Source: Ignavibacteriota bacterium (lineage in GTDB: Bacteria > Bacteroidota > Ignavibacteria > Tepidaquicellales > OLB5). From it: 64,000 nt of DNA. The position numbers and the translations under genes are program-made. Of this stretch, positions 12,817-52,350 are shown piece after piece. The notes below the pieces were generated by a model, which saw nothing but the letters and a program-made list of their open reading frames with translations, made no database searches and had not been told where the DNA came from. The stretch is from the NCBI GenBank assembly GCA_003820375.1, contig RPQH01000008.1, positions 8,567 through 72,566 on the forward strand, given 5' to 3'. Position 1 is the stretch's first letter, and the number at the start of each line of letters is the position of its first letter.

Positions 12817-13467
12817 AAAATTCAGAGTTGGGTTCAAAACAGTGCTAAGTTGGGTTCAAGTTGTGTCGGAGTTGGTATCAAGTTGGTATCAAGTTGGGTT
12901 ATCGTTTTTGGAAAACAGGGGTTAACTCATAGCAGTATAAGCAAATAACTCCGTCAGAAATGTGAGATTTTTGATTTAAGATTTGCGATTTTGAGCCAGA
13001 ATCGCTAATTTTTCATCAAAAAAAAAACTTCACTATATCATTAACCATTATCGCTATGGGAAAAATTTGGTAGCAAATATTTGTCGCTGTTGTTGGGGAG
13101 TTAAAGTAATACTTGAAGTTCATCCGTTTCAATTCCTGACACACCCCTTCCGCTTCGCTCCCTCCCCTCTCGAGAGGGGAATTCTTACCTCTTTATTTAT
13201 CCATGAGCTGAAATTGCTCAAAAAAGCACACTAAACACTCAATACACTCTAAGCACTCCACACACTCCAAACTATTTTTAGTTAAAACTTGACAATAAGC
13301 AATTACTATATTAAATTATACTGATAGTGCTTATATAGCTATATAAGCATAAATAACCGTTCTTTGTTAATATCGAAATGATATAAAGCATGTCGTAATA
13401 TTGTTCGAAAATGCTGCTAACGGATTTGGTTAGATTTTGGAGGGTTCAAAAAAATATGCACTGAAAA
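12817..13467 (+). repeat. ~0.65-kb non-coding repeat, copy 1
   Basis: Aligns along its length with 32584-33223 in the same orientation. The first ~470 nt are very similar by eye and the last ~170 nt are patchy. The track shows no ORF of 60 aa or more. Confidence 0.9.
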
Positions 13468-23042: not shown

Positions 23043-25031
23043 ATGGGAAAGATATCCACAAAAAGTATTCAGTCACAGTTAATACTGTACTTCACAATTG
23101 CAATTCTTGTACCTGTTATTGTAATAAGCATAATTGCATCTAAGTTCATCTATAACGAAATTACCAACCGTGCCGAAAGCAAAAGTATTTCCGACCTGAA
23201 CTCAGCGGGTGAAATTTATAATCACCGGATATCACAAATTGAAAGCATAACCCGCTTAACCGCAGGCAGAAGCTTTATTATCTCATCTCTGATTGAAAAT
23301 AAAGCCGATACTTTATACAAGGAGCTTCACACCATCCTTCAGAACGAAAAGCTTGATATATTCACTATAGTTGACAAAAACGGCAAGGTTATATGCCGCG
23401 GCAGAAATTCATTCAATTCGGGTGATTATATAACTTCCGATAAATTTATCAAAAGAGTTCTTGAAACAAAAAGCACGGTATCGGGAACCGATATTGTAAG
23501 CCCGGATGAATTGAAAAAAGAAGCATTCGAGCTGGCTGACAGGGCTTATATGGAAGTGAAGCCAACCCTCATGTCAAGGGAAAGGTCTGAAAAATTCGAG
23601 AAAAACGGTATGATGATGAAGTCAGCCTCTCCGTTGTTTGATAAGAATAAGAATATCGTCGGCGTACTGATGTCAGGTGTTCTTTTGAACAGGAATTACG
23701 ATATAGTAGATAAAATTAATAATGTTGTTCATGAAAACGAAGTGTATAAAGGGCAGGATATTGGGACTGTAACAATATTTGAATACGATGTGCGTATTGC
23801 AACCAATGTTAAAAACGAAGACGGTTCGTATGCTGTTTCAACACTTGTTTCGGAAGAAGTGTATGACGAGGTAATCCTTGCCGGGCAAAAGTGGATTGGT
23901 GATGCGTTTGTGGTTAATTCCTGGTATGTATCCGCTTACAAACCGATTAGAGATATTAATGACAGGGTTATCGGTATCTTATATGTGGGAATTTTAAAAC
24001 AGCCGTTCAATGACCTTCTGCTTAATACGATATTAATATTTTCCTCAATAGCAATTGTTACGGGTATAATAATATTTTTCGTAGCGGTGATGTTTGCAAA
24101 AAAGATATCAGCCCCTCTGCGCAAGCTGGAAGAATGGGCAAAACAAATAGCGGACGGTACGTATAAATCCAATATAGCTATTAAAGCGCCGCGTGAGATA
24201 GAAAGCCTTTCTTTGTCGCTAAATTTAATGGCAAAACAGCTTGAACAGGAAAAGTTTGAGCTTGAGAACTGGGCTGAAACTCTTGAGAATAAGGTTAACC
24301 AGAGAACAGAGGAATTAAAGAGGATAAATGACCAGCTTTTCAGGTCAGAGAAGCTTGCATCAATTGGTAAGCTTGCCGCAGGCGTTGCTCACGAGATAAA
24401 TAATCCGCTCACAGGCGTACTGACCAACAGCAGCTTAATGCTTGAAGACCTTGAAGAAAATGACCCGCGAAGAGAAGATTTGCAGGTTGTGGTTAACGAA
24501 ACCATAAGATGCAGGGAAATCGTAAAACGCCTGCTTGATTTTGCCCGGCAGACCAAGCCGCAGAAAAAAATGACCGACCTGAATGCCCTGATAGAGAATA
24601 TTATTCTGCTTGTCAGAAATCAAAGTGCTTTCAGGAATATCATTATCAAAAAAGTACTGGATACTTCTATTCCGCAAATAATGGTTGATGCAGACCAGAT
24701 ACAGCAGGTTTTTATCAATTTCATTCTGAATGCCTCGGAAGCTATGCCAAATGGCGGTCAGCTTGTAGTTAATACATCATTAAACCATGCCCGGGATTAT
24801 ATTGAAATTAAGTTTTCCGACAGCGGCTGCGGTATTTCGGAGAAGGATAAAAGAAGAATTTTTGACCCGTTCTTTACCACAAAACAGCAGGGCACGGGAT
24901 TGGGATTATCGATTAGCCACGGAATAATAGAGAGACATGGAGGAAAAATTATTTTAGACAGTGAATTGGGAAAAGGTACATGTTTCACAATATTTATGCC
25001 GGTAAACTATAACAGTGATATTGATGATTGA
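23043..25031 (+). CDS. Sensor histidine kinase with periplasmic Cache-like domain and HAMP
   Basis: 662-aa ORF with two TM segments flanking a ~290-aa extracytoplasmic domain. H-box is AHEINNPLTG; the ATPase part carries GTGLGLSISHGI. Confidence 0.85.
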   Translation: MGKISTKSIQSQLILYFTIAILVPVIVISIIASKFIYNEITNRAESKSISDLNSAGEIYNHRISQIESITRLTAGRSFIISSLIENKADTLYKELHTILQNEKLDIFTIVDKNGKVICRGRNSFNSGDYITSDKFIKRVLETKSTVSGTDIVSPDELKKEAFELADRAYMEVKPTLMSRERSEKFEKNGMMMKSASPLFDKNKNIVGVLMSGVLLNRNYDIVDKINNVVHENEVYKGQDIGTVTIFEYDVRIATNVKNEDGSYAVSTLVSEEVYDEVILAGQKWIGDAFVVNSWYVSAYKPIRDINDRVIGILYVGILKQPFNDLLLNTILIFSSIAIVTGIIIFFVAVMFAKKISAPLRKLEEWAKQIADGTYKSNIAIKAPREIESLSLSLNLMAKQLEQEKFELENWAETLENKVNQRTEELKRINDQLFRSEKLASIGKLAAGVAHEINNPLTGVLTNSSLMLEDLEENDPRREDLQVVVNETIRCREIVKRLLDFARQTKPQKKMTDLNALIENIILLVRNQSAFRNIIIKKVLDTSIPQIMVDADQIQQVFINFILNASEAMPNGGQLVVNTSLNHARDYIEIKFSDSGCGISEKDKRRIFDPFFTTKQQGTGLGLSISHGIIERHGGKIILDSELGKGTCFTIFMPVNYNSDIDD

Positions 25032-26430
25032 TACAAAAGCCGAAATTTTAATAGTAGATGATGAATTAGTGATTTGCAAAAGCTGCGAAAAGATATTCAA
25101 ACGCTCAGGACATAACACAACTTATGCAACGGGAGGTGTAGAGGCTTTAAATATCCTCGAGACCCGCGAGTTTGATGTTGTGTTCACAGACCTGAAAATG
25201 ATGGATATGGGCGGAATGGAAGTGCTCAGAACCGTTAGGCAGAAATACCCCGATACTCTTGTCGTAATAATAACAGGTTATGCTACCATTGCTTCTGCAG
25301 TTGAAACCATGCGGTACGGTGCATTCGATTACCTGCCGAAACCCTTTACTCCTGCTGAGCTTATTGCCGTGCTGAATAAAGCACTTGAGAAAAGAAAGAT
25401 TATAAAGATAACATCGAATAAATATAATTACTGCCATGAAACAGGATTCGAAGGATTAATAGGCAGAAGCAAAGAGATGTGCGAAGTTTATGACATGATA
25501 AGAAAAGTCGGGGAAACCGACAGTACTGTATTAATTATCGGAGAAAGCGGAACAGGAAAAGACCTAACTGCAAAAGCAATTCACAATGTTAGCAAAAGGA
25601 AAAATGAAAAGTATATTCCGATAGATGTATCTACACTTTCATCCGGCATACTGGAAAGTGAATTGTTTGGTCATGTGAAGGGTGCCTTTACAGGTGCTTA
25701 TACTAGCAAAGAGGGATTGTTCGAAGCGGCAGATAAAGGAACGGTATTTCTTGATGAGATTGGTAACCTGCCTTTGGAAACTCAATCACGCTTACTACGG
25801 GTGCTTCAGCAGAAAGAAATTATTCCCGTTGGCAGTACTGATGTAAAAAAAGTTGATGTAAGATTAATATTTGCTACAAACAGTGACCTGAAACAGCTTG
25901 TAATGAGCAATAAGTTCAGGGAAGACCTATACTATAGAATAAATGTATTCCCCATTAAGCTGCCGCCATTGAGAGTAAGAAGAGAAGATATCCCCGATCT
26001 TGCCCTGCATTTTCTCAGGCATTACTGTGTTTTATCGGAGCGGGTAGTACCGGAAATGGATGTTGAAGCAATGGAGATACTAATGAATTTCCACTGGCCG
26101 GGTAATGTAAGAGAGCTTGAACATACTATGGAGCGTTTAACAATACTTTCTGATGGTCCGGTAATCACACCTGCACATGTATCAGCTGCAATATATAAAG
26201 CAGATGCGCCGATGAAATCAGCCCCAAGGACAGTTGAAGAGCTTAAACAGATTAAGAAACAGATGAGAGATTATTCCATACAGGAAATTGAGAAGATGTT
26301 TATAATAGATGCATTGATGCGAAACAACTGGAACATCTCGCAAGCCGCGCGAGAAGTAAACATGCAGCGTCCAAACTTCCAGGCATTGATGAAGAAGTAT
26401 GGAATAAAGAAACCTGTTACCGGCGTGTAA
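25015..26430 (+). CDS. Sigma-54-dependent response regulator (NtrC family)
   Basis: 471-aa ORF with a receiver domain, an AAA+ domain (GESGTGKD and the GAFTGA loop) and a C-terminal Fis-type HTH. Confidence 0.92.
   Translation: MILMIDTKAEILIVDDELVICKSCEKIFKRSGHNTTYATGGVEALNILETREFDVVFTDLKMMDMGGMEVLRTVRQKYPDTLVVIITGYATIASAVETMRYGAFDYLPKPFTPAELIAVLNKALEKRKIIKITSNKYNYCHETGFEGLIGRSKEMCEVYDMIRKVGETDSTVLIIGESGTGKDLTAKAIHNVSKRKNEKYIPIDVSTLSSGILESELFGHVKGAFTGAYTSKEGLFEAADKGTVFLDEIGNLPLETQSRLLRVLQQKEIIPVGSTDVKKVDVRLIFATNSDLKQLVMSNKFREDLYYRINVFPIKLPPLRVRREDIPDLALHFLRHYCVLSERVVPEMDVEAMEILMNFHWPGNVRELEHTMERLTILSDGPVITPAHVSAAIYKADAPMKSAPRTVEELKQIKKQMRDYSIQEIEKMFIIDALMRNNWNISQAAREVNMQRPNFQALMKKYGIKKPVTGV
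26360..26414 (+). repeat. 55-nt direct repeat, copy 1 (functional 3' end of the sigma-54 regulator gene)
   Basis: 51 of 55 nt are identical to 28227-28281. Confidence 0.9.
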
Positions 26431-26570
26431 ATATTGATGCTTTTAAGCATCAATATAGGTATAAAATGAGCATATTGTAGCCTTTACGCTACATTACATC
26501 TTGCAATTCTACATAATATTTTATATATTAACAGCATAAAAGCTTTCAACATATAAAATAACCGGTTATT

Positions 26571-26915
26571 GTGATAACAAGAAGAAATAGAAACTGGGAA
26601 GAAATGGCTGATCCTGCCGTTGTTAAAGAAATTGGAAATGCTTTAAAACAGATGCGGCTCAATGTAAACCTTTCTCAGGAACAGCTTGCAAAGAAATCCG
26701 GATTGGACAGAACTACAATAAGCCGTATAGAATCAGGCAGAGCTGCAACATTACTTTCACTGGTACAAATATTACGTGCATTAGATAAGCTAAACATAAT
26801 GAACATATTCGTTCAGGAACCGGAGATTAGTCCCATAAAATTATTAAAGCTTCAGGAAAAAAAACGTCAAAGAGCATATCACCATAAATCTAAAGAAACA
26901 GGAAACAATAAATGA
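26571..26915 (+). CDS. hipB: HipB-like XRE-family HTH antitoxin
   Basis: 114-aa ORF with an HTH (LSQEQLAKKSGLDRTTISRIESG). It overlaps hipA by 4 nt. Confidence 0.8.
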   Translation: MITRRNRNWEEMADPAVVKEIGNALKQMRLNVNLSQEQLAKKSGLDRTTISRIESGRAATLLSLVQILRALDKLNIMNIFVQEPEISPIKLLKLQEKKRQRAYHHKSKETGNNK

Positions 26916-28204
26916 ATACTGTTGCAAGAGTAAATATATGGGGTATGATGGTCGGGGCTATTGCGTGGCGTGATGAAACAGGATATGCAGTTTTTGAATT
27001 TGACCCTGACTTCATTAAAAAGGGAGTAAACTTAGCCCCATTAAAAATGCCATTAGAGGAAGCATTAAATGGAAGAATGATTTATTCATTCCCTGAATTA
27101 AATAATACTACATTTAAAGGATTACCGGGAATGTTGGTTGAAAGTTTGCCTGACAGATTTGGAAATACGATTATTGATGCATGGCTTGCACGCCGGGGAG
27201 GAGAACAAAATTTTAATTCTGTAGAAAGGTTATGTTATATTGGTAAAAGAGGGATGGGAGCTCTTGAGTTTGAACCGGTAATTCCGTTAATAGATGATGT
27301 TTCGGAATCAATTCAAATAAGTGAACTTGTTAACCTGACCAAAGAAATACTTAATGAAAGAAAAGATCTCGCTGTTAATATCCACGATGAAACAACAGAT
27401 GGATTATTGAAAATAATAAGAGTCGGAACATCGGCGGGAGGCAACAGAGCGAAAGCAATTATTGCATATAATGAAAACACCGGTGATGTCCGTTCCGGAC
27501 AGATTGACGGATTAAAGGACTATAGCTATTGGATTATAAAATTTGATGGTATTAATGATAAAGAATTAGGTGATCCGAAAGGTTATTGCAAAATTGAATA
27601 TGCATATTACCTTATGGCGACAGATTGCGGAATAATTATGACTGAATGTAAAACGCTGAATGAAAACCACCGCACTCACTTTATGACAAAAAGGTTTGAC
27701 CGTGACGGAATAAATAAGATTCATATGCAGTCTTTATGTTCGATAGCACATTTTGATTTCAACTTAGCAGGAGCATATTCGTATGAACAGGCATTTCAAA
27801 TAATGCGAAAGCTGAAACTGCAATATAGTGACCATGAACAATTGTACAGGAGAATGGTATTTAATGTAATAGCAAGAAATCAGGATGATCATACTAAGAA
27901 CATTTCTTTTCTAATGGATAAAGCAGGAAAATGGGGTTTATCACCTGCATATGATGTAACTTATGCTTACAACCCTGATAATATTTGGCTGCGTTCACAT
28001 CAAATGTCAATAAATGGAAAACGGGATGATATAACCGGGAATGATTTAATTGAAGTCGCTGAAAATATGAATATAAAAAAGCCGAAAGAAATTATACAGA
28101 TTGTTTTGGAAACGGTTTCCTGCTGGCGTGAGTATGCAAAAAAAGCAAATGTTAATGCAGAACATCAAAAAAAGATTTATAATGCTTTACAATTGAAAAT
28201 ATAG
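26912..28204 (+). CDS. hipA: HipA-family serine/threonine kinase toxin
   Basis: 430-aa ORF with the catalytic motif QDDHTKNISF and HipA N-terminal coupling-domain features. Confidence 0.9.
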   Translation: MNTVARVNIWGMMVGAIAWRDETGYAVFEFDPDFIKKGVNLAPLKMPLEEALNGRMIYSFPELNNTTFKGLPGMLVESLPDRFGNTIIDAWLARRGGEQNFNSVERLCYIGKRGMGALEFEPVIPLIDDVSESIQISELVNLTKEILNERKDLAVNIHDETTDGLLKIIRVGTSAGGNRAKAIIAYNENTGDVRSGQIDGLKDYSYWIIKFDGINDKELGDPKGYCKIEYAYYLMATDCGIIMTECKTLNENHRTHFMTKRFDRDGINKIHMQSLCSIAHFDFNLAGAYSYEQAFQIMRKLKLQYSDHEQLYRRMVFNVIARNQDDHTKNISFLMDKAGKWGLSPAYDVTYAYNPDNIWLRSHQMSINGKRDDITGNDLIEVAENMNIKKPKEIIQIVLETVSCWREYAKKANVNAEHQKKIYNALQLKI

Positions 28205-28226
28205 AAAAATTATCCTGTAGATTTAT

Positions 28227-28281
28227 ACATGCAGCGTCCAAACTTCCAGGCCTTGATGAAGAAGCATACAATAAAGAAACC
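28227..28281 (+). repeat. 55-nt direct repeat, copy 2 (orphan copy of the regulator 3' end)
   Basis: Would encode MQRPNFQALMKKHTIKKPAATK*, against MQRPNFQALMKKYGIKKPVTGV* in the live gene. Confidence 0.9.
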
Positions 28282-28520
28282 AGCAGCAACCAAATAATTA
28301 ATATACACACATTCCGTTATCCCGGGTAACGAAAACGCATTATTTTACCCTAACCTATTGAAAAATAATATGTTTATAATTATATTGCGACATACAGAAT
28401 TTCTTGTTCTGTTCTGCATCGAAAACTACTAGAACAAACTTCACTCGATACAGGACGTATTGTGGTTGCGTCTTGGAGAATCTTTAGCAACTGAAAAATA
28501 TTTTTTTATAAAACATTGAA

Positions 28521-30287
28521 ATGGAGACAGATTTATTTATGAAAAGTTTCATCTTTTCACTGTTTATAATATTTATATATTCTATTCAATTTTATTGCCA
28601 ATGGCAACCGGATGTAAGATTAACAAATAATAATTATGGTTCCGGTACGTCTATAAACAATGCCAAAAATATAGCTTCTTATGGAAATATTATACATGTT
28701 GTTTGGAATGATGGACGTAATGGTTATGATGATATATATTATAAACGCTCAACAAATAGTGGTCTAAACTGGGGGGAAGACATAAGATTAACTACTGATC
28801 CAAACAGCTCACAGGGAGCTTCAATAGCTGTATCTAACCAATACGTGCATGTTGTATGGAGAGATTATAGAGATGGACATCATGAAATATATTATAAACG
28901 TTCAATCGATGGAGGTATAACATGGCAAACAGATGTTCGACTAACTAACACATTGTACGATTCTATGGATCCCTCTTTAGCATTATTGGATTCAGTCCTG
29001 CATGTAGTTTGGCACACTAATCGTGATGGAGGTCTGGAAATTTATTATAAAAAATCAACAAATAATGGGGTGAACTGGGGGGCAGATAATAGATTAACAA
29101 ACAATTCAGCAATTTCAGCCTATCCTTCAATTGTAGCATATGGTTCATATGTTCACGTTGCATGGTATGATGAACGTGACAATAATAAGGAGATATATTA
29201 TAAAAAATCAACCAATACCGGTATAAATTGGGAATCTGACTTAAGACTAACCTATGACACAGCGAACTCGATGTATTCATCTATATCAGCGTCAGGCAAT
29301 AACATCTTTGTTGCTTGGGGTGATAATAGAAATGGGAACTATGAGATATATGGTATAAAGTCGACCAATAATGGCATTAACTGGTCAAATGATATTAGGT
29401 TAACTAATAATTCCAGTATCTCCAATTTTCCCAATATTGTAATTTCAGATAATATTTTTCATGTCGTGTGGCATGATTTCAGGGATGGAAATTACGAAAT
29501 ATATTATAAACGATCTACTAGTGCCGGTTTAAACTGGGAGTCAGATTACAGGTTAACAAATGCTTCTGATATTTCAGAATTTGCATCAGTATGCTTATTA
29601 AATACATCTGTAAATATAGTTTGGATGGATTATAGGGATAATAATCCGGAAATTTATTATAAACAAAACCCAACAGGTAATATAATAGTGATACCGCCAC
29701 CTGCACCAAATCTTATAGCTCCTCTAAATAATTCGACCGGACAATCATTAACACCATTGATGGATTGGGGAGATGTAACAAGCGCTATAAGTTACAGAAT
29801 CCAGATAACAACAACTGATTCTACAGCATTTTCAACAACAGTTTTTGATTCAAGTGGTATTACATCATCACAAGTTACAGTACCTTCAGGAAAACTTCAA
29901 AATAATACAAAGTATTGGTGGAGAGTTAATGCTCAAAATGCAGCAGGTGCCGGTCCGTGGTCAGTTGTTTGGAATTTTAGAACATTATTTTTAGGAATAG
30001 TAAAGGATAATGAAATACCTAAAGAATTTAAGCTATATCAGAATTATCCAAATCCCTTCAATCCAACAACACAAATTGAGTTTTCTATTCCCAAAAACAA
30101 TATTCATGTCAATATAATAGTATATGATGTATCAGGAAAAATTGTATCTATATTAGTAAATGAAAAACTAAATGCAGGTACTTATAAAGTAGATTTTAAT
30201 GGAGAAAGTTTAGCAAGCGGGGTTTGTTTTTACAAACTGGAAACTGAAGGATTTGTTGAGACGAAAAGAATGGTAATTTTAAAATAA
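28521..30287 (+). CDS. Secreted BNR/Asp-box repeat protein with FN3-like and T9SS C-terminal sorting domains
   Basis: 588-aa ORF with a signal peptide (probable start M7 at 28539). About 7 repeats of YYK[RK]S.N.G.NW follow, then a C-terminal NYPNPFNP..YDVSGK T9SS domain. Confidence 0.8.
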   Translation: METDLFMKSFIFSLFIIFIYSIQFYCQWQPDVRLTNNNYGSGTSINNAKNIASYGNIIHVVWNDGRNGYDDIYYKRSTNSGLNWGEDIRLTTDPNSSQGASIAVSNQYVHVVWRDYRDGHHEIYYKRSIDGGITWQTDVRLTNTLYDSMDPSLALLDSVLHVVWHTNRDGGLEIYYKKSTNNGVNWGADNRLTNNSAISAYPSIVAYGSYVHVAWYDERDNNKEIYYKKSTNTGINWESDLRLTYDTANSMYSSISASGNNIFVAWGDNRNGNYEIYGIKSTNNGINWSNDIRLTNNSSISNFPNIVISDNIFHVVWHDFRDGNYEIYYKRSTSAGLNWESDYRLTNASDISEFASVCLLNTSVNIVWMDYRDNNPEIYYKQNPTGNIIVIPPPAPNLIAPLNNSTGQSLTPLMDWGDVTSAISYRIQITTTDSTAFSTTVFDSSGITSSQVTVPSGKLQNNTKYWWRVNAQNAAGAGPWSVVWNFRTLFLGIVKDNEIPKEFKLYQNYPNPFNPTTQIEFSIPKNNIHVNIIVYDVSGKIVSILVNEKLNAGTYKVDFNGESLASGVCFYKLETEGFVETKRMVILK

Positions 30288-30421
30288 ATAACTTAAAAGA
30301 AGCTAAAAAATAAAATTACATTATTAGCCATAGCGTTACACTCTATAATATCATTAAAGTTTTCCCAAAAAATTAATTACGGTTAAATATACCGTAATAT
30401 TAAAAACCTTAGGAGGTATAT

Positions 30422-31192
30422 ATGAAATTATTTCTTCAAACAATTATTATTCTTGCAGTCCTGATTTCTACGGGCGTAACTTATTCACAGCAATATGAAG
30501 ATGTGGTCTATTTAAAAGACGGAAGTATTATTCACGGCACTATTATCGAACAGGTTCCGAATGTATCAGTTAAAATAAAGACAAAAGATGGAAATGTTTT
30601 TGCCTACAAGTATGAAGATATACAGAAATTTACAAAAGAGGAAGTAAAAGGAAGCTTGTATTCGTATGAAGAAAACACAAAATATGGTAACGATGGTTTC
30701 CGCTCAGGTAAATTTTTATTAGGTTTAAAAGCCGGGTATGGTGATTGGGGAAGCTTAACATATGGAATAAATTTTGAAATAGGGGTCTCTAATAATTATG
30801 GTATAGCATTGGACGTAGCATATACTTCCTGGGAAGAAGGACCTTATACTGGGAGTGTATATAACTCACATACTAATGAGTACGAAGATTATTCATATAG
30901 ATATGATTATAATTTAATCGGTGGATTGCTAAGTATGTCTTATCATTTTAGTCCCGGTAAAAAATTAGATTTATATGCTAAGGCAGGAGCTGGTTATTTC
31001 TATATTGATGCCAGTACTAAATGGTTACAGCAGCCTAATTCAGGTTATTTTTCTACTATTGGTGCCGAGGCTTCCGGTGTTGGTTATGGAGGTCAGGCAG
31101 GTATGAATTATTTCTTAACTAAAAATATTGGATTATCACTTTCAGCAGGATGGCCGTTTTATGCCAGCGGTGGTGTAACATTTAAGTTTTAA
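30422..31192 (+). CDS. Outer-membrane beta-barrel (porin-family) protein
   Basis: 256-aa ORF with an RBS (aggaggt), a signal peptide, a Gly/Tyr-rich alternating pattern and a terminal F. Confidence 0.65.
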   Translation: MKLFLQTIIILAVLISTGVTYSQQYEDVVYLKDGSIIHGTIIEQVPNVSVKIKTKDGNVFAYKYEDIQKFTKEEVKGSLYSYEENTKYGNDGFRSGKFLLGLKAGYGDWGSLTYGINFEIGVSNNYGIALDVAYTSWEEGPYTGSVYNSHTNEYEDYSYRYDYNLIGGLLSMSYHFSPGKKLDLYAKAGAGYFYIDASTKWLQQPNSGYFSTIGAEASGVGYGGQAGMNYFLTKNIGLSLSAGWPFYASGGVTFKF

Positions 31193-31259
31193 AAAATAAT
31201 AATATATTGTTTCTCTCCTTCCCAAATTTTACAATGGGAAGGAGTGTTTTAATAAACCC

Positions 31260-32495
31260 TCACTTTACCAGCACCATACGTCTCGTTTTCATGTAACTGC
31301 CTGCTTTAATCGTATAAAGATATATTCCGCTTGGATAATTTGATGCATCCCATATAATAGAGTAACTCCCTGCATTTCGCATCTGATTTACTAATACAGC
31401 AATTTCTCTTCCCATAACATCATATATAGAAAGCTTAACATCACTGCTCATTGCTAATTGATAATTGATAATTGTTACAGGATTAAACGGATTGGGGTAA
31501 TTCTGATACAGTTCGTAATCTAATGGAATATTATTGCTGACAGGTTCTATTCCTGTTTGTGTTCCGCCATTGGTTGATTTATATATTGTACCTGTTCCTG
31601 TATTTGATGCAGCTGCAAGCCAGCCGGTGCTCTGGTTTATAAAATCAACCGAATTAAAAGCTGTATTATTTAAATTAAATTGCACGGTCCATGTGTTGCC
31701 GCCATTGGTGGATTTGGAAACACCGCCAATTCCCGTACCTGAAGTTCCTGCAAGCCACCCGGTATTATTATCTATAAAATGAATTGAATTAAATCCATTA
31801 CCACTCATAGTATATTGTGTATTCCACGTATTTCCACCGTTTGTGGATTTAAAAATCCTGCCAAAACCGGAGCTTGATTTTGTTGCTAACCAGCCCGTGT
31901 TCTGGTTTATAAAGAAAACTGAATTAAATGCTGTATCAATTAAAACATATTGTGAATTCCATGTGTTACCGCCATTGGTGGATTTTTCTATTTCGCCTAT
32001 AAATCCCGAACTTGATATATTTGTCCTCCATCCTGTATTTTGGTCAATAAAGTAAACCGAAGTAACGGTGTAAGATGCCCATAATTGAATGGTCCAGGTG
32101 TTTCCACCGTTTGTAGATTTATATAATCCACCGGTTCCATTGCCCGATTTAGTTGCTAACCAGCCTGTACTTTGATTAAGAAAGAAAACCGATTTAAAAG
32201 CAGTATCTGTAGAAAAACACAGTGTATTCCATGTATTTCCACCGTTTGTAGATTTATATAATGTTCCCGTACTTGTACCTGATGAGACAGCAAGCCATCC
32301 GGTATTTATATCAATAAAGTGTACTGAATTAAATGATGCATTATTTGAAGTGTACTGTACTGTCCATTGACTGTATAAAATTGTTACCTGAAATAAAACG
32401 AACAATGATAAAAGTACCTTTGCGGCAGGTTTCATAATTTCTGTATTAATAAAATTTATTATGGTGAGCTGCAATATAAATTGATTTTTCATCAA
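31260..32495 (-). CDS. Secreted BNR/Ycf48-like propeller-repeat protein with T9SS C-terminal domain
   Basis: 411-aa ORF (probable start MKPAAKV at 32435). It has 7 repeats of KSTNGGNTW and a C-terminal NYPNPFNP domain. Confidence 0.8.
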   Translation of the reverse strand: MMKNQFILQLTIINFINTEIMKPAAKVLLSLFVLFQVTILYSQWTVQYTSNNASFNSVHFIDINTGWLAVSSGTSTGTLYKSTNGGNTWNTLCFSTDTAFKSVFFLNQSTGWLATKSGNGTGGLYKSTNGGNTWTIQLWASYTVTSVYFIDQNTGWRTNISSSGFIGEIEKSTNGGNTWNSQYVLIDTAFNSVFFINQNTGWLATKSSSGFGRIFKSTNGGNTWNTQYTMSGNGFNSIHFIDNNTGWLAGTSGTGIGGVSKSTNGGNTWTVQFNLNNTAFNSVDFINQSTGWLAAASNTGTGTIYKSTNGGTQTGIEPVSNNIPLDYELYQNYPNPFNPVTIINYQLAMSSDVKLSIYDVMGREIAVLVNQMRNAGSYSIIWDASNYPSGIYLYTIKAGSYMKTRRMVLVK

Positions 32496-32583
32496 TATAT
32501 ATTCACTTAAATTTTATACTCAAATAATTTATTGGGAATCATTATAGTGACAAATCCTGCATTTTTACTGACAATTTTTCTCT

Positions 32584-33223
32584 AAAATCAGAGTTGGGTT
32601 CAAAACAAGTCGGAGATGGGTTAAAGTTGTGTCGGAGTTGGGTTCAAGTTGGTATCAAGTTGGGTTATCGTTTATCAAAAACAGGGGTTAACTCATTGCA
32701 GTATAAGGAGATAACGCCGTCAGAAATGCGAGATTTTTGATTTAAGATTTGCGATTTTGAGCCGGAATAGCCAATTTTTCATCAAAAAAAAACTTCACTA
32801 TATCATTAACCATTATCGCTATGGGAAAAATTTGGCAGCAAATATTTGTCGCTGATGTTGGAGAGTTAAAGTATTACTTGAAGGTATTTCCGGTTCATTA
32901 TCAAACACACCCCTTCCGCTTCGCTCCCTCCCCTCTCGAGAGGGAAATCCTTACCTCTTTATTTATCTATTGATTAAAATTGCTTAAAAAGCACTCTAAA
33001 CACTCTATACACACTAAGCATTCTATACACACCAATCTATTTTTAAATAAAACTTGACAAACACAAATATCGTAAATACATTTGTATAGTGATAAATATT
33101 ATCACTTAATACAGTTCTTTAATAATATAGAGATGGTTTACAGCATGTCGTAATATAGCTGTAAAATGATGCTCACGAATTTGGTTAGATTTTGAAATGT
33201 TGAAAAAAATATGCACTGAAAAA
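32584..33223 (+). repeat. ~0.65-kb non-coding repeat, copy 2
   Basis: Colinear with 12817-13467. It begins 88 nt upstream of the minus-strand T9SS gene start. Confidence 0.9.
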
Positions 33224-33234
33224 TACCCTAAGGA

Positions 33235-33360
33235 CAATTAGCAATGAACAATTAGCAATGAACAATTAGCAATGAACAATGAGCAATGAACAATTAGCAA
33301 TGAACAATGAACAATGAACAATAAGCAATGAACAATGATCAATGAACAATTATCAATGAA
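33235..33360. repeat. Heptamer tandem array (18 units of CAATNRN)
   Basis: caattag caatgaa alternation with variants caatgag, caataag, caatgat and caattat. Confidence 0.9.
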
Positions 33361-33659
33361 GAGCTTAAGAGCCGGAAGTGAAGAGTAGATGATATATAGT
33401 GAATAAATAATGACTCCGGGTGTGTTCTATTGAAAATCCTGCAAATCTGTCTGCCTTTGGTGGAAGCTTCGGCGCAGGGAGGATCTTCGACTTACCTCGC
33501 ATAGACGCCCAACTCAAGACTCCTGGTTCACGACTCATTTTATACACCTGTATATTTTTTTTATACGGTTTTCGTTATTTCTCTTTTTTTTAATTATCTT
33601 CATACCGCAAAATTCTACTTAAATGCACATTTTGTTGAATCTGACAGGTAATTCTGATA

Positions 33660-33718: not shown

Positions 33719-34897
33719 ATGATTACCGAAAAAATATTAGTAGTAGACGATGAAGCAACAGTCTGCTCAAGCATACAAAAAATATTAACCAAAAGAGGTT
33801 ATTCAGTAGATAACTCATTGAATGCGGATGACGCAATATTAAAAATAAAAAATAATAAATTTGACCTCGTAATAACAGATTTAATGATGCCGGGAACAGA
33901 TGGAATGGAACTGCTCCAGATTATTAAACAGCATTATCCTGAGCTTGATGTTATCGTTATTACCGGTTATGCATCAATAGATACAGCAGTAAAAGCAACA
34001 AAGCTGGGAGCAATGGATTACCTTCCAAAGCCGTTTACCCCTGAAGAGCTCACCGAGATAACCAAAAGAGCTATAGAAAAGAGGAAAATGAATGTATCAA
34101 AAAAAGCTGAACCGAAGTCAAAGATAAAACCGGCTTTGAAAAAGAATGACAACATCGATATAGATATGCCGTTCAGCGAAAGTGAAGTTGAATCTCACAC
34201 TTCAAAAGAGTTTGTTGATAAGCTTTCAAGGTCCGATATTCCCCAGCAAAAGAAACCTGCAAAGAAAACCGAATTCTGCAATTCCGGACAGCGTGAATGC
34301 AGACGCCTTGTACTTGAAGGAAGAGAATGCACCGGTGAATGCCCGATAGTAAAGAAAGAAAGAGAAAGAGCAGCTAAAGCAACAGGAAAAACATTTGTTC
34401 ATACTGACGATATAATTGATGTGGATATGCCATTCAACTATTCAGAAGTTGAAAGAATTATGGGAAGCGATTACATTAACTGCATGGACAGGTCTGAAAT
34501 ACCGAGAGCCGGGTTATTCGGAAGAGATTCAAATGCAAAGCATAATGTGCTTGTTGTTGACGACGAACCGATAGTATGCCACAGCTTAAGGAAAATATTG
34601 ACAAAGCAATCATGCTCAGTTGAAGAAGCATTCGATGTTGATGCAGCACTTTTGAAAATGAGACTGAACAAATACGACCTAATATTCTTAGACCTCAAGA
34701 TGCCAAAAAGCGATGGCATGGAACTGTTGAAGTCAATAAAGAATCTTTACCCCGAAATTCCTGTAGTTATGATATCGGGTTATGCATCAATCAAGACGGC
34801 AGTAGAAGCAACCAGAGAAGGTGCATTCAACTTTATTCCCAAGCCGTTTACACCCGAAGAGCTTAAAGTTGTAACCAGAGAAGCACTGGCTGCATAA
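33719..34897 (+). CDS. Dual-receiver response regulator (REC-linker-REC) with Cys-rich linker
   Basis: 392-aa ORF with two receiver domains (VVDDE...DLMMPG; VVDDE...DLKMPK). The linker carries the duplicated motif D[IV]DMPF..SEVE...RS[DE]IP and C-x6-C-x9-C-x3-C. Confidence 0.85.
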   Translation: MITEKILVVDDEATVCSSIQKILTKRGYSVDNSLNADDAILKIKNNKFDLVITDLMMPGTDGMELLQIIKQHYPELDVIVITGYASIDTAVKATKLGAMDYLPKPFTPEELTEITKRAIEKRKMNVSKKAEPKSKIKPALKKNDNIDIDMPFSESEVESHTSKEFVDKLSRSDIPQQKKPAKKTEFCNSGQRECRRLVLEGRECTGECPIVKKERERAAKATGKTFVHTDDIIDVDMPFNYSEVERIMGSDYINCMDRSEIPRAGLFGRDSNAKHNVLVVDDEPIVCHSLRKILTKQSCSVEEAFDVDAALLKMRLNKYDLIFLDLKMPKSDGMELLKSIKNLYPEIPVVMISGYASIKTAVEATREGAFNFIPKPFTPEELKVVTREALAA

Positions 34898-51699: not shown

Positions 51700-51990
51700 T
51701 CGATATTGTTTCTTAAAAAATAGAAAAAAAATTCAAAATAAAACACCTATTTGTATTGACAATATTGGTAACATTTTTCAATTCTTTATTGTCTCAACCA
51801 GTACTGCTGTTGTTGAATTTTCCTTTATAACCTTTTATTTCTTTCTAAAAATTACGGATATCTCTATAACCGGCATATTTATAATACTTTACAGCAACTA
51901 TATATCTTTAATCTAACGTTACAAACATGACATAAATCATAGGTAAAAAACAGCTTATTTCTTATTTTTGTACATACAAATTGTGTCATC

Positions 51991-52350
51991 ATGCATGAAC
52001 TTTCTATTGCACAAAACATACTTGAGATAGTGCATCAATACGTGCCGGCTGAAGAGCTTGAGAACGTTGAATTTGTTAAAGTGAAGGTCGGTGAAGTGGC
52101 AGGTGTTGTAACCGACTCTCTCACTTTTGGATTTGAAGCTATTACTGCAGGAACATCTCTTAACAATGCAAAACTTGCCGTCGAAAATATTCCGTTTAAA
52201 GTACAATGCAATTTATGCAGTAAAATATTTTCCAATGAATTTGGAATTACAATTTGTCCATTATGCAATAGTTCAAACACAAAAATTTTATCGGGCATGG
52301 AACTTCAGGTAACTGAAGTTCTGCTCAAAGAAAATGAAGAAGAACAATGA
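51991..52350 (+). CDS. hypA: Hydrogenase nickel-insertion protein HypA
   Basis: 119-aa ORF with MHELSIAQNILE and CNLC...CPLC zinc site. Confidence 0.92.
   Translation: MHELSIAQNILEIVHQYVPAEELENVEFVKVKVGEVAGVVTDSLTFGFEAITAGTSLNNAKLAVENIPFKVQCNLCSKIFSNEFGITICPLCNSSNTKILSGMELQVTEVLLKENEEEQ

Follow-up and report, generated by a model that had tools for sequence, protein, structure and literature searches.

How did a toxin-antitoxin pair come to lie directly behind a sigma-54-dependent response regulator gene (REG), between two copies of that gene's own 3' end? The movement of chromosomal toxin-antitoxin modules off plasmids, phages and transposons is poorly documented, and the locus considered here, part of a 64-kb stretch of DNA that was analysed as a whole (the window), documents such a movement cleanly: both junctions are present, as are an empty site and an orphan that can be dated. 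The reading that we favour, and consider probable with some reservation, is that the hipBA cassette entered REG within its last ~70 nt, with a long target duplication, by host recombination. The features on which the argument draws are listed below, with the support for each in brackets; L133 is a related metagenomic contig.

25024–26430, plus strand: REG, a sigma-54-dependent response regulator gene (NtrC/AtoC-like: receiver, AAA+ and Fis-type HTH), the insertion target, intact (Pfam; NCBI RPI19114.1)
26360–26414, plus strand: left repeat copy c1, the functional 3' end of REG, encoding MQRPNFQALMKKYGIKKP, the last part of the HTH recognition helix (direct reading, repeat search)
26431–26456, no strand: 26-bp palindrome ATATTGATGCTT-TT-AAGCATCAATAT, 1 nt past the REG stop, whose core TGATGCTTTTAAGCATCA (26435–26452) is the operator-like site O1 (motif search)
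26476–26493, no strand: second operator-like palindrome O2, TGTAGCCTTTACGCTACA, 41 nt from O1 (motif search)
26604–26915, plus strand: hipB antitoxin gene, XRE-type HTH, 103 aa from ATG (Pfam HTH_3, 1e-13; NCBI RPI19115.1)
26912–28204, plus strand: hipA toxin kinase gene, 430 aa, intact (Pfam Couple_hipA and HipA_C; NCBI RPI19116.1)
28227–28297, plus strand: orphan, made up of the second 55-nt repeat copy c2 (28227–28281) and the old tail and stop (AATK-stop), decaying (contiguous with the L133 homology at 28224–28492)
28298–28492, plus strand: the ancestral flank beyond REG, which L133 shares (85% identity across 28224–28492; ~93% from ~28330 by hand count)

The duplicated gene end and the pair between its copies

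When read directly, 26360–26414 and 28227–28281 form a direct repeat that is identical at 51 of 55 positions, the sole such pair within the 64-kb window; the first 25 nt of the two copies are the same, 25 bases being also the longest exact match that they share, and a repeat search lengthened the pair to 63 nt at 89% (26352–26414 and 28219–28281). The repeat scored 77.8 bits, where shuffled flanks reached no more than 22.3 bits, and a 25-mer from the repeat start had two matches in the window at ≤3 mismatches as opposed to none in 100 shuffles. The duplication itself, first proposed in a sequence-only reading of this DNA, was thus confirmed by direct reading, repeat search and shuffle controls. 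Beyond the repeat the two sequences show no relationship (~8/18 positions match by hand count, versus 51/55 inside the repeat), and this full divergence places the repeat boundary inside the regulator ORF. A sensitive search found no third copy in the 64-kb window, including where the 7.1-kb block described below ends on the right; tandem accretion, which would have put a third copy at that end, was rejected because no copy is there.

The REG protein, an exact match to NCBI RPI19114.1 (468/471 aa, stop at 26428–26430), carries the Pfam domains Response_reg, Sigma54_activat, AAA_lid_14 and HTH_8 (residues 422–462), and has orthologs at 63–94% aa identity. Its last four codons and stop (26416–26430) read VTGV-stop, where the orphan instead has the tail AATK-stop. 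The orphan reads MQRPNFQALMKKHTIKKPAATK followed by its own stop at 28295–28297, and it stands in frame with hipA, behind the hipA TAG stop. Two further claims of the sequence-only reading are borne out by these tails: that the orphan keeps an open frame with its own stop, and that the insertion supplied a replacement 3' end, as the working REG ends in a four-residue tail unlike the displaced one.

The same reading had placed hipB and hipA between the repeats, and both are intact and supported by Pfam there. The cassette extends from ~26415/26431 to 28226 (~1.8 kb) and comprises two palindromes, a promoter, hipB, hipA and a 22-nt trailer. hipB lies upstream of hipA in the same direction, its stop overlapping the hipA ATG at 26912; NCBI starts hipB at a GTG at 26571 (114 aa). 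The matches of hipB to the NCBIfam models couple_hipB and HipB were both under cut-off; those of hipA to PF13657 (3e-17) and PF07804 (7e-50) were both over the gathering cut-off, and the HipA motifs S174-A-G-G-x-R-x-K181 and D325-D-H-T-K-N330 were invariant in an alignment of 20 homologs that included the window protein. By its domains, gene order, kinase motifs and palindromes, the pair fits the type II toxin-antitoxin system HipBA, as a putative toxin and antitoxin. The GC3 of hipB and hipA is 0.27–0.28, compared with 0.326 ± 0.032 in 20 core genes of the window. The nearest other hipA homolog is only 71% identical: no hipA homolog above this value was found in databases and an exact hipA look-up gave no contig, so a search for the same cassette elsewhere yielded no second copy. 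The relatives of the pair that were examined, at 64–71% aa identity (L135–L139, L146–L152), are at unrelated sites.

The palindrome ahead of hipB, which had been put at 26432–26459, is real, but its coordinates are 26431–26456. The motif TGWWGC-N6-GCWWCA has two matches in the 64 kb (0.07 expected), O1 and O2, and among 139 fetched loci it occurs only in five hipBA loci, always upstream of hipB; from this distribution the 26-bp palindrome, in the cassette promoter region, is probably a HipB operator. In the 71%-related cassette of L135 a palindrome occupies the position equivalent to O1 and aligns with it, and in the window O2 is followed by a promoter-like TTGCAA-17-TATATT at 26501–26529. The operator motif begins directly after the REG stop, which is the cassette edge. 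We rejected the palindrome as an att site or other recombination feature, the motif being associated with hipB, and as a terminator, none being called there; an Rfam scan of 26–34 kb gave nothing near the gathering score.

The empty site and the ancestral gene end

L133, a metagenomic contig of 1.7 kb, belongs to another species-level lineage (~12% diverged) and is not a sister strain. Its positions 1–1199 match window positions 25219–26417 at 88% nt identity, and its positions 1139–1405 match 28224–28492 at 85%. As a single REG 3' end in L133 joins both window flanks without hipBA, L133 represents the empty site; a repeat-collapsed assembly could mimic such a site, though contigs normally break at repeats of this kind. 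L007 and L008 (long contigs, 80–82% nt identity) and eight more orthologous loci have neither hipBA nor a duplicated 3' end, and L009 and L010 have a different island, a type III restriction-modification (R-M) system, at the same position without such repeats. In all, the duplicated REG 3' end was found in none of 11 orthologous loci. The proposal of an insertion into the end of REG therefore held when compared with loci that lack hipBA, and orthologs showing the duplication without hipBA, which would have spoken against it, were not seen among these 11. A scan of metagenomes with a repeat-core pattern that allowed for wobble positions gave, among the matches listed, no close relative of the window by BLAST.

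The copies themselves carry a direction. c1 differs from the empty-site sequence of L133 at 2/55 positions, and at all four mismatches between c1 and c2 it is c1 that keeps the outgroup state and c2 that is derived. The two tails, which we tried to polarise with six ortholog tails, cannot be polarised, as VTGV-stop and AATK-stop are equally close to L133 (11/18 positions each, by hand count from the alignment). On the sequence evidence the orphan represents the ancestral REG 3' end, now displaced and predicted to be non-functional.

We found no clear recombination breakpoint inside REG (best uncorrected p = 0.008–0.08), with a weak uncorrected signal near 25.9–26.0 kb in a test for import of the REG 3' part together with hipBA. 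At synonymous sites, pairs differ by 0.39–0.45 at the REG 3' end versus 0.46 gene-wide; given no extra conservation of this kind, nothing special attaches to the 38 nt over which the window, L133 and L134 are identical, and the REG 3' end was rejected as an unusually conserved DNA site of the sort that recurrent att use would leave.

The cassette is also the left part of a 7.1-kb block (26.4–33.5 kb) that is absent from the next-closest relatives, L007 and L008. The remainder of this block, 28.3–33.5 kb, has a low GC3 (0.22–0.24) and ends in a dispersed ~640-nt repeat found also at 12.8–13.5 kb, which suggests that it has a history of its own.

Possible routes of insertion

If hipBA entered REG in the way that we favour, the insertion would have duplicated at least 55 bp and at most 74 bp of the target. 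The left copy would have kept the Fis-type HTH of REG complete, with the gene then ending in a new four-residue tail, and REG stayed intact because 55 bases of its end were duplicated; the right copy, with the old tail, stop and downstream flank, would have been left as the orphan and have acquired four substitutions since. Most likely, we infer, the route was recombination by host functions without a dedicated recombinase. Incoming or circularised DNA of a related strain, carrying hipBA beside a copy of the REG 3' end, would have recombined through the ~55-bp homology, either in a Campbell-type single crossover or in a homology-anchored recombination with an illegitimate right join at 28226/28227, and the cassette, once in place, would presumably have persisted because it is addictive, with HipB autoregulating it through both palindromes. 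Campbell-type crossover, illegitimate recombination and an integrase acting in trans are the routes that may have been taken. The VTGV tail has the length of every REG tail in the closest clade, and its initial V is common to L133; this hints at a genuine regulator allele brought by the insert and not at random sequence, and such an allele would be easier to reconcile with Campbell or att-type integration than with a duplication made by a simple staggered cut.

Insertions of this layout, termed 'insertion with long target duplication', have been described for R-M gene complexes (Nobusato et al. 2000, Gene 259:99; Furuta, Abe & Kobayashi 2010, NAR 38:2428, PMC2853133), and were recognised by an insert of <20 kb, a repeat of >30 bp, alignment of both repeats to a single empty-site copy and a lack of mobility genes (PMC2853133). 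Like toxin-antitoxin pairs, R-M complexes act as addiction modules. Here the insert of ~1.8 kb holds a complete gene system (hipB and hipA), the direct repeat is 55 nt (51/55), both repeats align to one copy in L133 with conserved flanks (a short contig, ~12% diverged), and the scanned ORFs include no linked mobility genes, the repeat not being multi-copy (two copies within 64 kb). Pfam scans of 25 window proteins (62 ORFs in the window) identified no integrase or transposase and, beyond hipBA and REG, only metabolic, hydrogenase, sensor and T9SS families; for the ORFs of 35–43 kb the evidence is synteny with L007 genes, which have no mobility domains. Nor does the cassette have terminal inverted repeats, the best end-to-end inverted match being 7 nt. 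A transposon or IS insertion was rejected on account of the 55-nt repeat (compared with duplications of 2–14 bp), the absence of terminal inverted repeats and the absence of a transposase in the scanned ORFs; an integron cassette was rejected since the repeat consists of target-gene coding sequence.

We consider it unlikely that the event was site-specific, with the repeats as the attL and attR of an integrase-less, CIME- or satellite-like element whose att copies the REG 3' end and whose recombinase acted in trans. Direct repeats derived from the target do stand at both ends, they are the 3' end of a gene that was restored, the replacement tail resembles a real regulator tail in being of the same length, and an analogous locus described below (L143/L145), with hipBA between long direct repeats in the same geometry, adjoins a tyrosine integrase; an integrase could moreover lie elsewhere in the genome. 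Against this, there is no recombinase in the cassette or in the scanned ORFs of the window, neither the cassette nor the duplicated 3' end recurs at the 11 orthologous loci, as repeated att use would have it, the type III R-M island at the same position in L009 and L010 has no such repeats, and the synonymous differences at the REG 3' end (given above) are close to those of the whole gene. Repeats of >30 bp were, in addition, what Furuta et al. used to separate their cases from typical site-specific events (PMC2853133). The sequence-only reading had likened the cassette to a site-specific island while noting the lack of an integrase; the lack holds for the scanned ORFs, and with no terminal inverted repeats, a site not reused in 11 loci and ordinary synonymous conservation, nothing points to such an island. 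Integrase-mediated attL/attR formation accounts for the layout no better than does an integrase-independent insertion with long target duplication.

The order of events might also be reversed, which we regard as improbable. hipBA would already have stood behind a REG ending in VTGV-stop, and a block from an L133-like donor, consisting of the last 71 nt of the donor REG, its 190-nt flank and BNR/T9SS genes to ~33.5 kb, would have been inserted 22 nt past hipA by illegitimate recombination, the orphan being a hitch-hiking donor fragment. The absence of the whole 26.4–33.5 kb from L007 and L008, the low GC3 of its larger part, the dispersed repeat at its end and tails that cannot be polarised would all suit such a history. 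It requires more events, however, and no relative has REG adjacent to hipBA; REG and flank are native in L133, which has the REG body most similar to that of the window, and since both are similarly close to L133 (flank 85–93%, REG 88%), neither looks foreign. The weakest alternative, a chimeric metagenomic contig that joins two strains at a shared 3' end, is very improbable: the window does come from a MAG and metagenomes do hold strain mixtures, but the junction at 28226/28227 is the unique hipA trailer entering the repeat (for which spanning reads are needed), the copies have four differences and no exact match longer than 25 bases, which is under the usual assembly k-mers, and two contigs on record (78,093 and 102,477 nt) carry these same genes.

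On the favoured account, insertion by host recombination with a long target duplication, a toxin-antitoxin pair moved into a core cluster of genes for hydrogenase regulation and spared the gene that it struck. Its operon now lies between the regulator and its probable target promoter, and the new tail indicates how the C-terminus of a transcription factor can be altered by such an insertion.

Other hipBA loci and known systems

Among eight independent hipBA loci examined, two have long direct repeats of unrelated sequence (55 nt and 114–122 nt), and a third has a 15-nt repeat over the last codons of the neighbouring gene. The second long-repeat locus, L143/L145 (unrelated, probably Bacteroidales), has a hipBA 50% identical to that of the window within the 114–122-nt repeats, with a tyrosine integrase adjoining the cassette; its repeat is single-copy at loci without hipBA, and its right repeat begins 23 nt after the hipA stop, so that in both long-repeat loci this distance is 22–23 nt. 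One might speculate from these cases that hipBA cassettes of Bacteroidota and Ignavibacteriota are mobile units that insert beside or into gene ends with long, variable duplications by a shared mechanism without a linked recombinase, much as R-M complexes have been proposed to do, a generalisation that we consider doubtful. The hipBA locus of the window is a single example, and does not by itself reveal the mechanism or mobility of this unit.

In E. coli, HipA is a Ser/Thr kinase and HipB an XRE repressor of palindromic operators, whose half-sites are TATCC/GGATA. The window pair is like E. coli-type hipBA in gene order and overlap, domains, kinase motifs and paired palindromes upstream of hipB, whereas its half-sites are TGWWGC/GCWWCA and its HipA is remote from characterised HipA proteins (NCBIfam YjjJ far under cut-off; HipT/HipA_C matches in the PDB at 1e-8). 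Integrase islands and prophages that enter the 3' end of a tRNA, tmRNA or protein-coding gene bring a substitute 3' end in their attP. With them the locus shares repeats of the target end, terminal codons derived from the element and a displaced old end; it differs from them in its small size (1.8 kb), in having no integrase in the scanned ORFs, in a site not reused in 11 loci, and in imperfect repeats without recognisable core and arm organisation.

The R-M insertions are closer. In the Haemophilus influenzae cases the repeats are 46 bp and 44/46 identical (PMC2853133). The two are alike in a small addiction-type pair, in the absence of a linked mobility gene, in imperfect repeats of tens of base pairs, in a single copy at the empty site and in the survival of a neighbouring gene, whose 3' end or stop codon falls within the repeat. 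Unlike the R-M cases, which were compared within species, the window was compared across lineages ~12% diverged, its host is an uncultured member of the Ignavibacteriota, and the tail of its left copy may be a foreign allele of the target. DNA breakage by the R-M systems was suggested by the authors of that work as a possible driver of such insertions; R-M systems cut DNA, whereas the cargo here is a type II toxin-antitoxin pair (HipA kinase and HipB), and that driver is absent. As the footprint is nonetheless the one reported for R-M systems, it suggests that the long-duplication route is independent of DNA-cutting cargo. The locus is in this sense a fairly ordinary case of the layout described for R-M systems, now with toxin-antitoxin cargo.

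The orphan regulator end and the empty site

The gene struck by the insertion, the sigma-54-dependent response regulator gene REG, is preceded by its cognate Cache/HAMP histidine kinase gene and lies in a hydrogenase/redox cluster with PFOR, FeFe- and NiFe-hydrogenase subunits, Hyp maturation genes and two-component sensors; NCBI entries RPI19113-RPI19120 ('MAG: Ignavibacteriae bacterium'), on contigs of 78,093 and 102,477 nt, are exact protein matches to the window. Around the left edge of the insertion lie:

25024-26430, plus strand: REG, with receiver, AAA+ and Fis-type HTH domains
26431-26456: palindrome, one base past the REG stop codon

The left repeat copy (26360-26414) is the genuine REG end, reading …MQRPNFQALMKKYGIKKPVTGV, and the right copy (28227-28281) is an orphan whose frame, MQRPNFQALMKKHTIKKPAATK, closes at a stop codon of its own (28295-28297). 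They are identical at 51 of 55 positions, including the whole of the first 25 nt, and a repeat search lengthened the match to 63 nt (89% identity). The pair scored 77.8 bits (shuffled flanks, ≤22.3 bits), the 25-mer had two matches in 64 kb at ≤3 mismatches and none in 100 shuffles, and no third copy was found in the 64-kb window. The sequence-only reading had described this duplication, the open frame of the orphan and a hipBA pair between the copies, all of which we recovered, the domains detected being HTH_3 for hipB and Couple_hipA + HipA_C for hipA; hipB and hipA share a 4-nt overlap, and HipA retains the conserved kinase motifs. The orphan shares the reading frame of hipA, whose TAG stop is at 28202-28204, and read-through of this stop (28202-28297) would extend HipA by 31 residues, the last of them being the old REG tail; the shared frame is probably coincidental.

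A genome-collection scan yielded five orthologous kinase-regulator pairs (63–74% aa identity), none of them with hipBA (0/5), and a protein search identified nearer REG relatives at 94, 88, 84, and 83%. The 90% cluster of the REG protein had two further members, one of which, P0242, is encoded on the 1,671-nt contig L133, and it is this contig that decides the matter. As L133 1-1199 aligns to window 25219-26417 at 88% and L133 1139-1405 to window 28224-28492 at 85%, a single REG 3' end there joins the left flank of the window to the post-orphan sequence, without hipBA. L133 is the empty site called for by the proposal that hipBA had inserted into the end of REG, and this part of the sequence-only reading is right. 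At none of 11 orthologous loci (0/11) does the REG 3' end occur twice, i.e., the duplication was not seen apart from hipBA in relatives.

Adjoining this junction, the non-coding window segment 28330-28492 (L133 1245-1405) is ~93% identical to L133 by manual count versus 88% in the adjoining coding sequence, in a comparison of these two sequences. It contains a promoter-like site (28358-28386) and three predicted hairpins and had no Rfam match; we regard it as a candidate small RNA or regulatory leader.

At the four differences between the copies, the left one has GCA and TAT GGA and the orphan GCC and CAT ACA. The left state matches L133, L134, and L008, and L007 shares its GCA codon but has its own TAC TCC in place of TAT GGA; the orphan changes include loss of a Gly common to most orthologs. 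Because the left copy keeps the state of the relatives, the orphan is the drifted copy, as expected of a displaced fragment. Past the 55 nt the copies match at ~8/18 positions (manual count) versus 51/55 before, an abrupt loss of similarity inexplicable by later drift, and the duplication therefore ends at ~26414-26417, inside the ORF. As to which C-terminus is ancestral, the tail sequences themselves (each matching that of L133 at 11/18 positions by manual count) are too short to polarise; the orphan tail is nonetheless the positional ancestor, since it and all sequence beyond it continue the L133 homology. The left tail, VTGV*, is new to REG, and to that extent the replacement 3' end suggested by the sequence-only reading stands. 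In both tails KKP is followed by exactly four residues, as in every close relative (PVISQ, PTVSQ, PASVN, PAAAN), and we estimate a ~5% chance of a random sequence stopping at that exact codon; this match in length is a weak hint that VTGV* may itself derive from a regulator allele brought in with the insert.

Operator-like palindromes and the downstream block

The palindrome had previously been placed at 26432-26459; it is present between the copies, at 26431-26456. Its core is TGATGCTTTTAAGCATCA, with a sibling, TGTAGCCTTTACGCTACA, 41 nt downstream. The pattern TGWWGC-N6-GCWWCA has two matches in the window (0.07 expected), precisely these two cores, and among 139 loci it occurs only in five with related hipBA, always upstream of hipB. 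Because of this restriction, and because the palindrome aligns with that of a 71%-related hipBA cassette in L135, it is best read as a HipB operator-like site belonging to hipBA regulation, and nothing recognisable of the cassette lies to its left. We rejected two other roles, that of an att site, as the motif is tied to hipB upstream regions, and that of a terminator, as none was called at that spot. In L135 the upstream DUF2779 gene (end 1995) has its stop codon at the centre of the operator-like palindrome TGTAGCTTATAAGCATCA (1984-2001), so cassette edges abutting gene ends recur; no duplication was detectable at that edge.

The next-closest long contigs, L007 and L008 (80–82% nt; 49.5 and 78.8 kb), are collinear with window 17.5–26.4 kb and, on the right, with 33.5–41.3 kb (L007) and 33.5–41.5 kb (L008), and the window therefore carries 7.1 kb (26400-33530) that they lack. 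hipBA is only the left part of this block, the remainder of which, with the sequence beyond it, comprises:

28521-30287, plus strand: BNR-repeat T9SS protein
30422-31192, plus strand: 256-aa protein with no Pfam match
31260-32495, minus strand: second T9SS-tailed repeat protein
within the 7.1-kb block: ~1 kb of repetitive non-coding DNA
33541-33554: palindrome TATACACCTGTATA, counterpart of one conserved directly after REG in L007/L008
33660-33675: perfect sigma-54 promoter TGGCACGGCAATTGCT, the sole one in 64 kb, 106 nt downstream of TATACACCTGTATA
33719-34897: double-receiver gene behind the sigma-54 promoter

GC3 was 0.27–0.28 for hipB and hipA, just under that of 20 core genes (0.326 ± 0.032, minimum 0.284), and 0.22–0.24, under the core range, for 28521-30287 and 30422-31192, the plus-strand genes that were scored. 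A non-coding direct repeat of ~640 nt (12818-13467 and 32584-33222; 80–96% identical, 19.76 kb apart), its second copy at the right end of the block, may represent a MITE-like element or else a scar left by recombination.

In L007/L008 the palindrome lies 46–270 nt after REG, followed by a sigma-54 promoter ahead of the double-receiver gene; from this arrangement, the TGGCACGGCAATTGCT promoter and its gene are probably REG's own target, displaced 7.1 kb from REG in the window. In L002-L004, the stop codon of the regulator gene is followed by a similar box, CAGGTGTATATTTTTTTTAT. Just upstream of the enhancer-like palindrome is a tandem array (33233-33372) of 7/14-nt units, CAATGAA / CAATTAG (~9 copies of the 14-mer), and L009 and L013 have comparable heptamer arrays after the stop codon of the regulator gene. 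In L009 (6833-13752) and L010, of an 83%-identical lineage, a different island lies just downstream of the regulator gene, beginning with GAATTGC-type heptamer repeats and encoding a type III restriction enzyme (ResIII/RE_endonuc), a DUF3800 protein and an N6/N4 methyltransferase; the site downstream of REG looks like a hotspot for defence/addiction cargo. Separately, hypA adjoins the sensor kinase gene in L007 (4-351) and L008 (2-419), and in the window (51924-52350) it lies ~34 kb from the sensor kinase block in the opposite relative orientation, indicating that a large segment was inverted or translocated, with a breakpoint near 17.5 kb.

Probable routes of insertion

The sequence-only reading had likened the cassette to a site-specific island, which our searches did not support: there were no integrase or transposase domains in the 25 window proteins scanned, no terminal inverted repeats (best match 7 nt), and no extra synonymous-site conservation at the REG 3' end. 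Its statement that the window lacks an integrase holds for those 25 proteins, and for 35–43 kb, outside the scan, it rests on synteny with L007 genes without mobility domains. Most likely are two host-driven routes. In one, a Campbell-type single crossover would have joined the chromosomal REG 3' end to circular or circularised DNA in which hipBA adjoined ~70 nt from the 3' end of a related regulator gene, which would account for two genuine-looking tails. In the other, homology-anchored recombination in the REG body would have been accompanied by an illegitimate right-hand join at 28226/28227. A mosaic-breakpoint test in REG gave a weak signal (best uncorrected p 0.008–0.08), REG being clearly nearest L133 to ~codon 330 and about equidistant from L133, L007, and L134 beyond.

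Site-specific integration by an integrase acting in trans seems improbable to us, though a distant case, in IMG/VR contigs L143/L144, L145 and L142, lends it some support. In these contigs a hipBA cassette with 50% identity to that of the window lies within 114–122-nt direct repeats:

L143 2400-2521 and 4299-4419: direct repeats, 92–93% identical (also in L144, L145, L142)

There the right repeat begins 23 nt past the hipA stop (22 nt in the window), a tyrosine integrase gene follows after another ~650 nt, and the repeat is single-copy at hipBA-less loci, being found with the right flank in L157 and L162 and, more distantly, L154 and L158-L161. This cassette also adjoins a second, divergent hipBA.

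As to the generality of the footprint, eight independent hipBA loci of this family were examined, and long flanking direct repeats occur at 2/8, the window and L143/L145. A third locus (L136-L138) has a 70%-related cassette between exact 15-nt direct repeats, TCTTCTCCCAAATTG (L136 75-89 / 1963-1977; 30 bits, null maximum 22), the downstream copy encoding the last residues of the adjoining convergent hemerythrin gene; L138 has an upstream tRNA-like 5' fragment, with no ARAGORN tRNA call there. The remaining 5/8 loci have no flanking direct repeats, and we consider the recurrence suggestive, not a statistic.

Among the other rivals, the reverse order, in which the orphan came in with the 28.3–33.5 kb block, is less probable than integration in trans, as it requires more steps and no genome supports it. 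An assembly artefact is unlikely, given that the repeat is entered from unique sequence and that no exact match between the copies exceeds 25 bases.

Comparison with restriction-modification insertions

For restriction-modification (R-M) systems, Furuta, Abe and Kobayashi defined 'insertion with long target duplication' by an insert of <20 kb, repeats of >30 bp, no mobility genes, and both repeats aligning to one copy at the empty site (PMC2853133); such repeats often span the stop codon, leaving the target gene intact (PMC2853133). The window locus agrees with every one of these operational criteria, the small insert, long repeats, one-copy empty site and lack of mobility genes (here among the proteins scanned) being common to both. 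A later review takes the comparison of R-M and toxin-antitoxin (TA) systems as addiction modules further (PMC3874152). The searchable literature yielded no account of such a footprint for a type II TA pair, and an earlier report elsewhere is possible. The two differ in cargo: for R-M systems, where no mechanism has been settled on, published work suggests that the cargo itself breaks DNA, which cannot apply here because HipA is a protein kinase. The hipBA locus is a new example, with TA cargo in Ignavibacteriota, of an already known insertion footprint.
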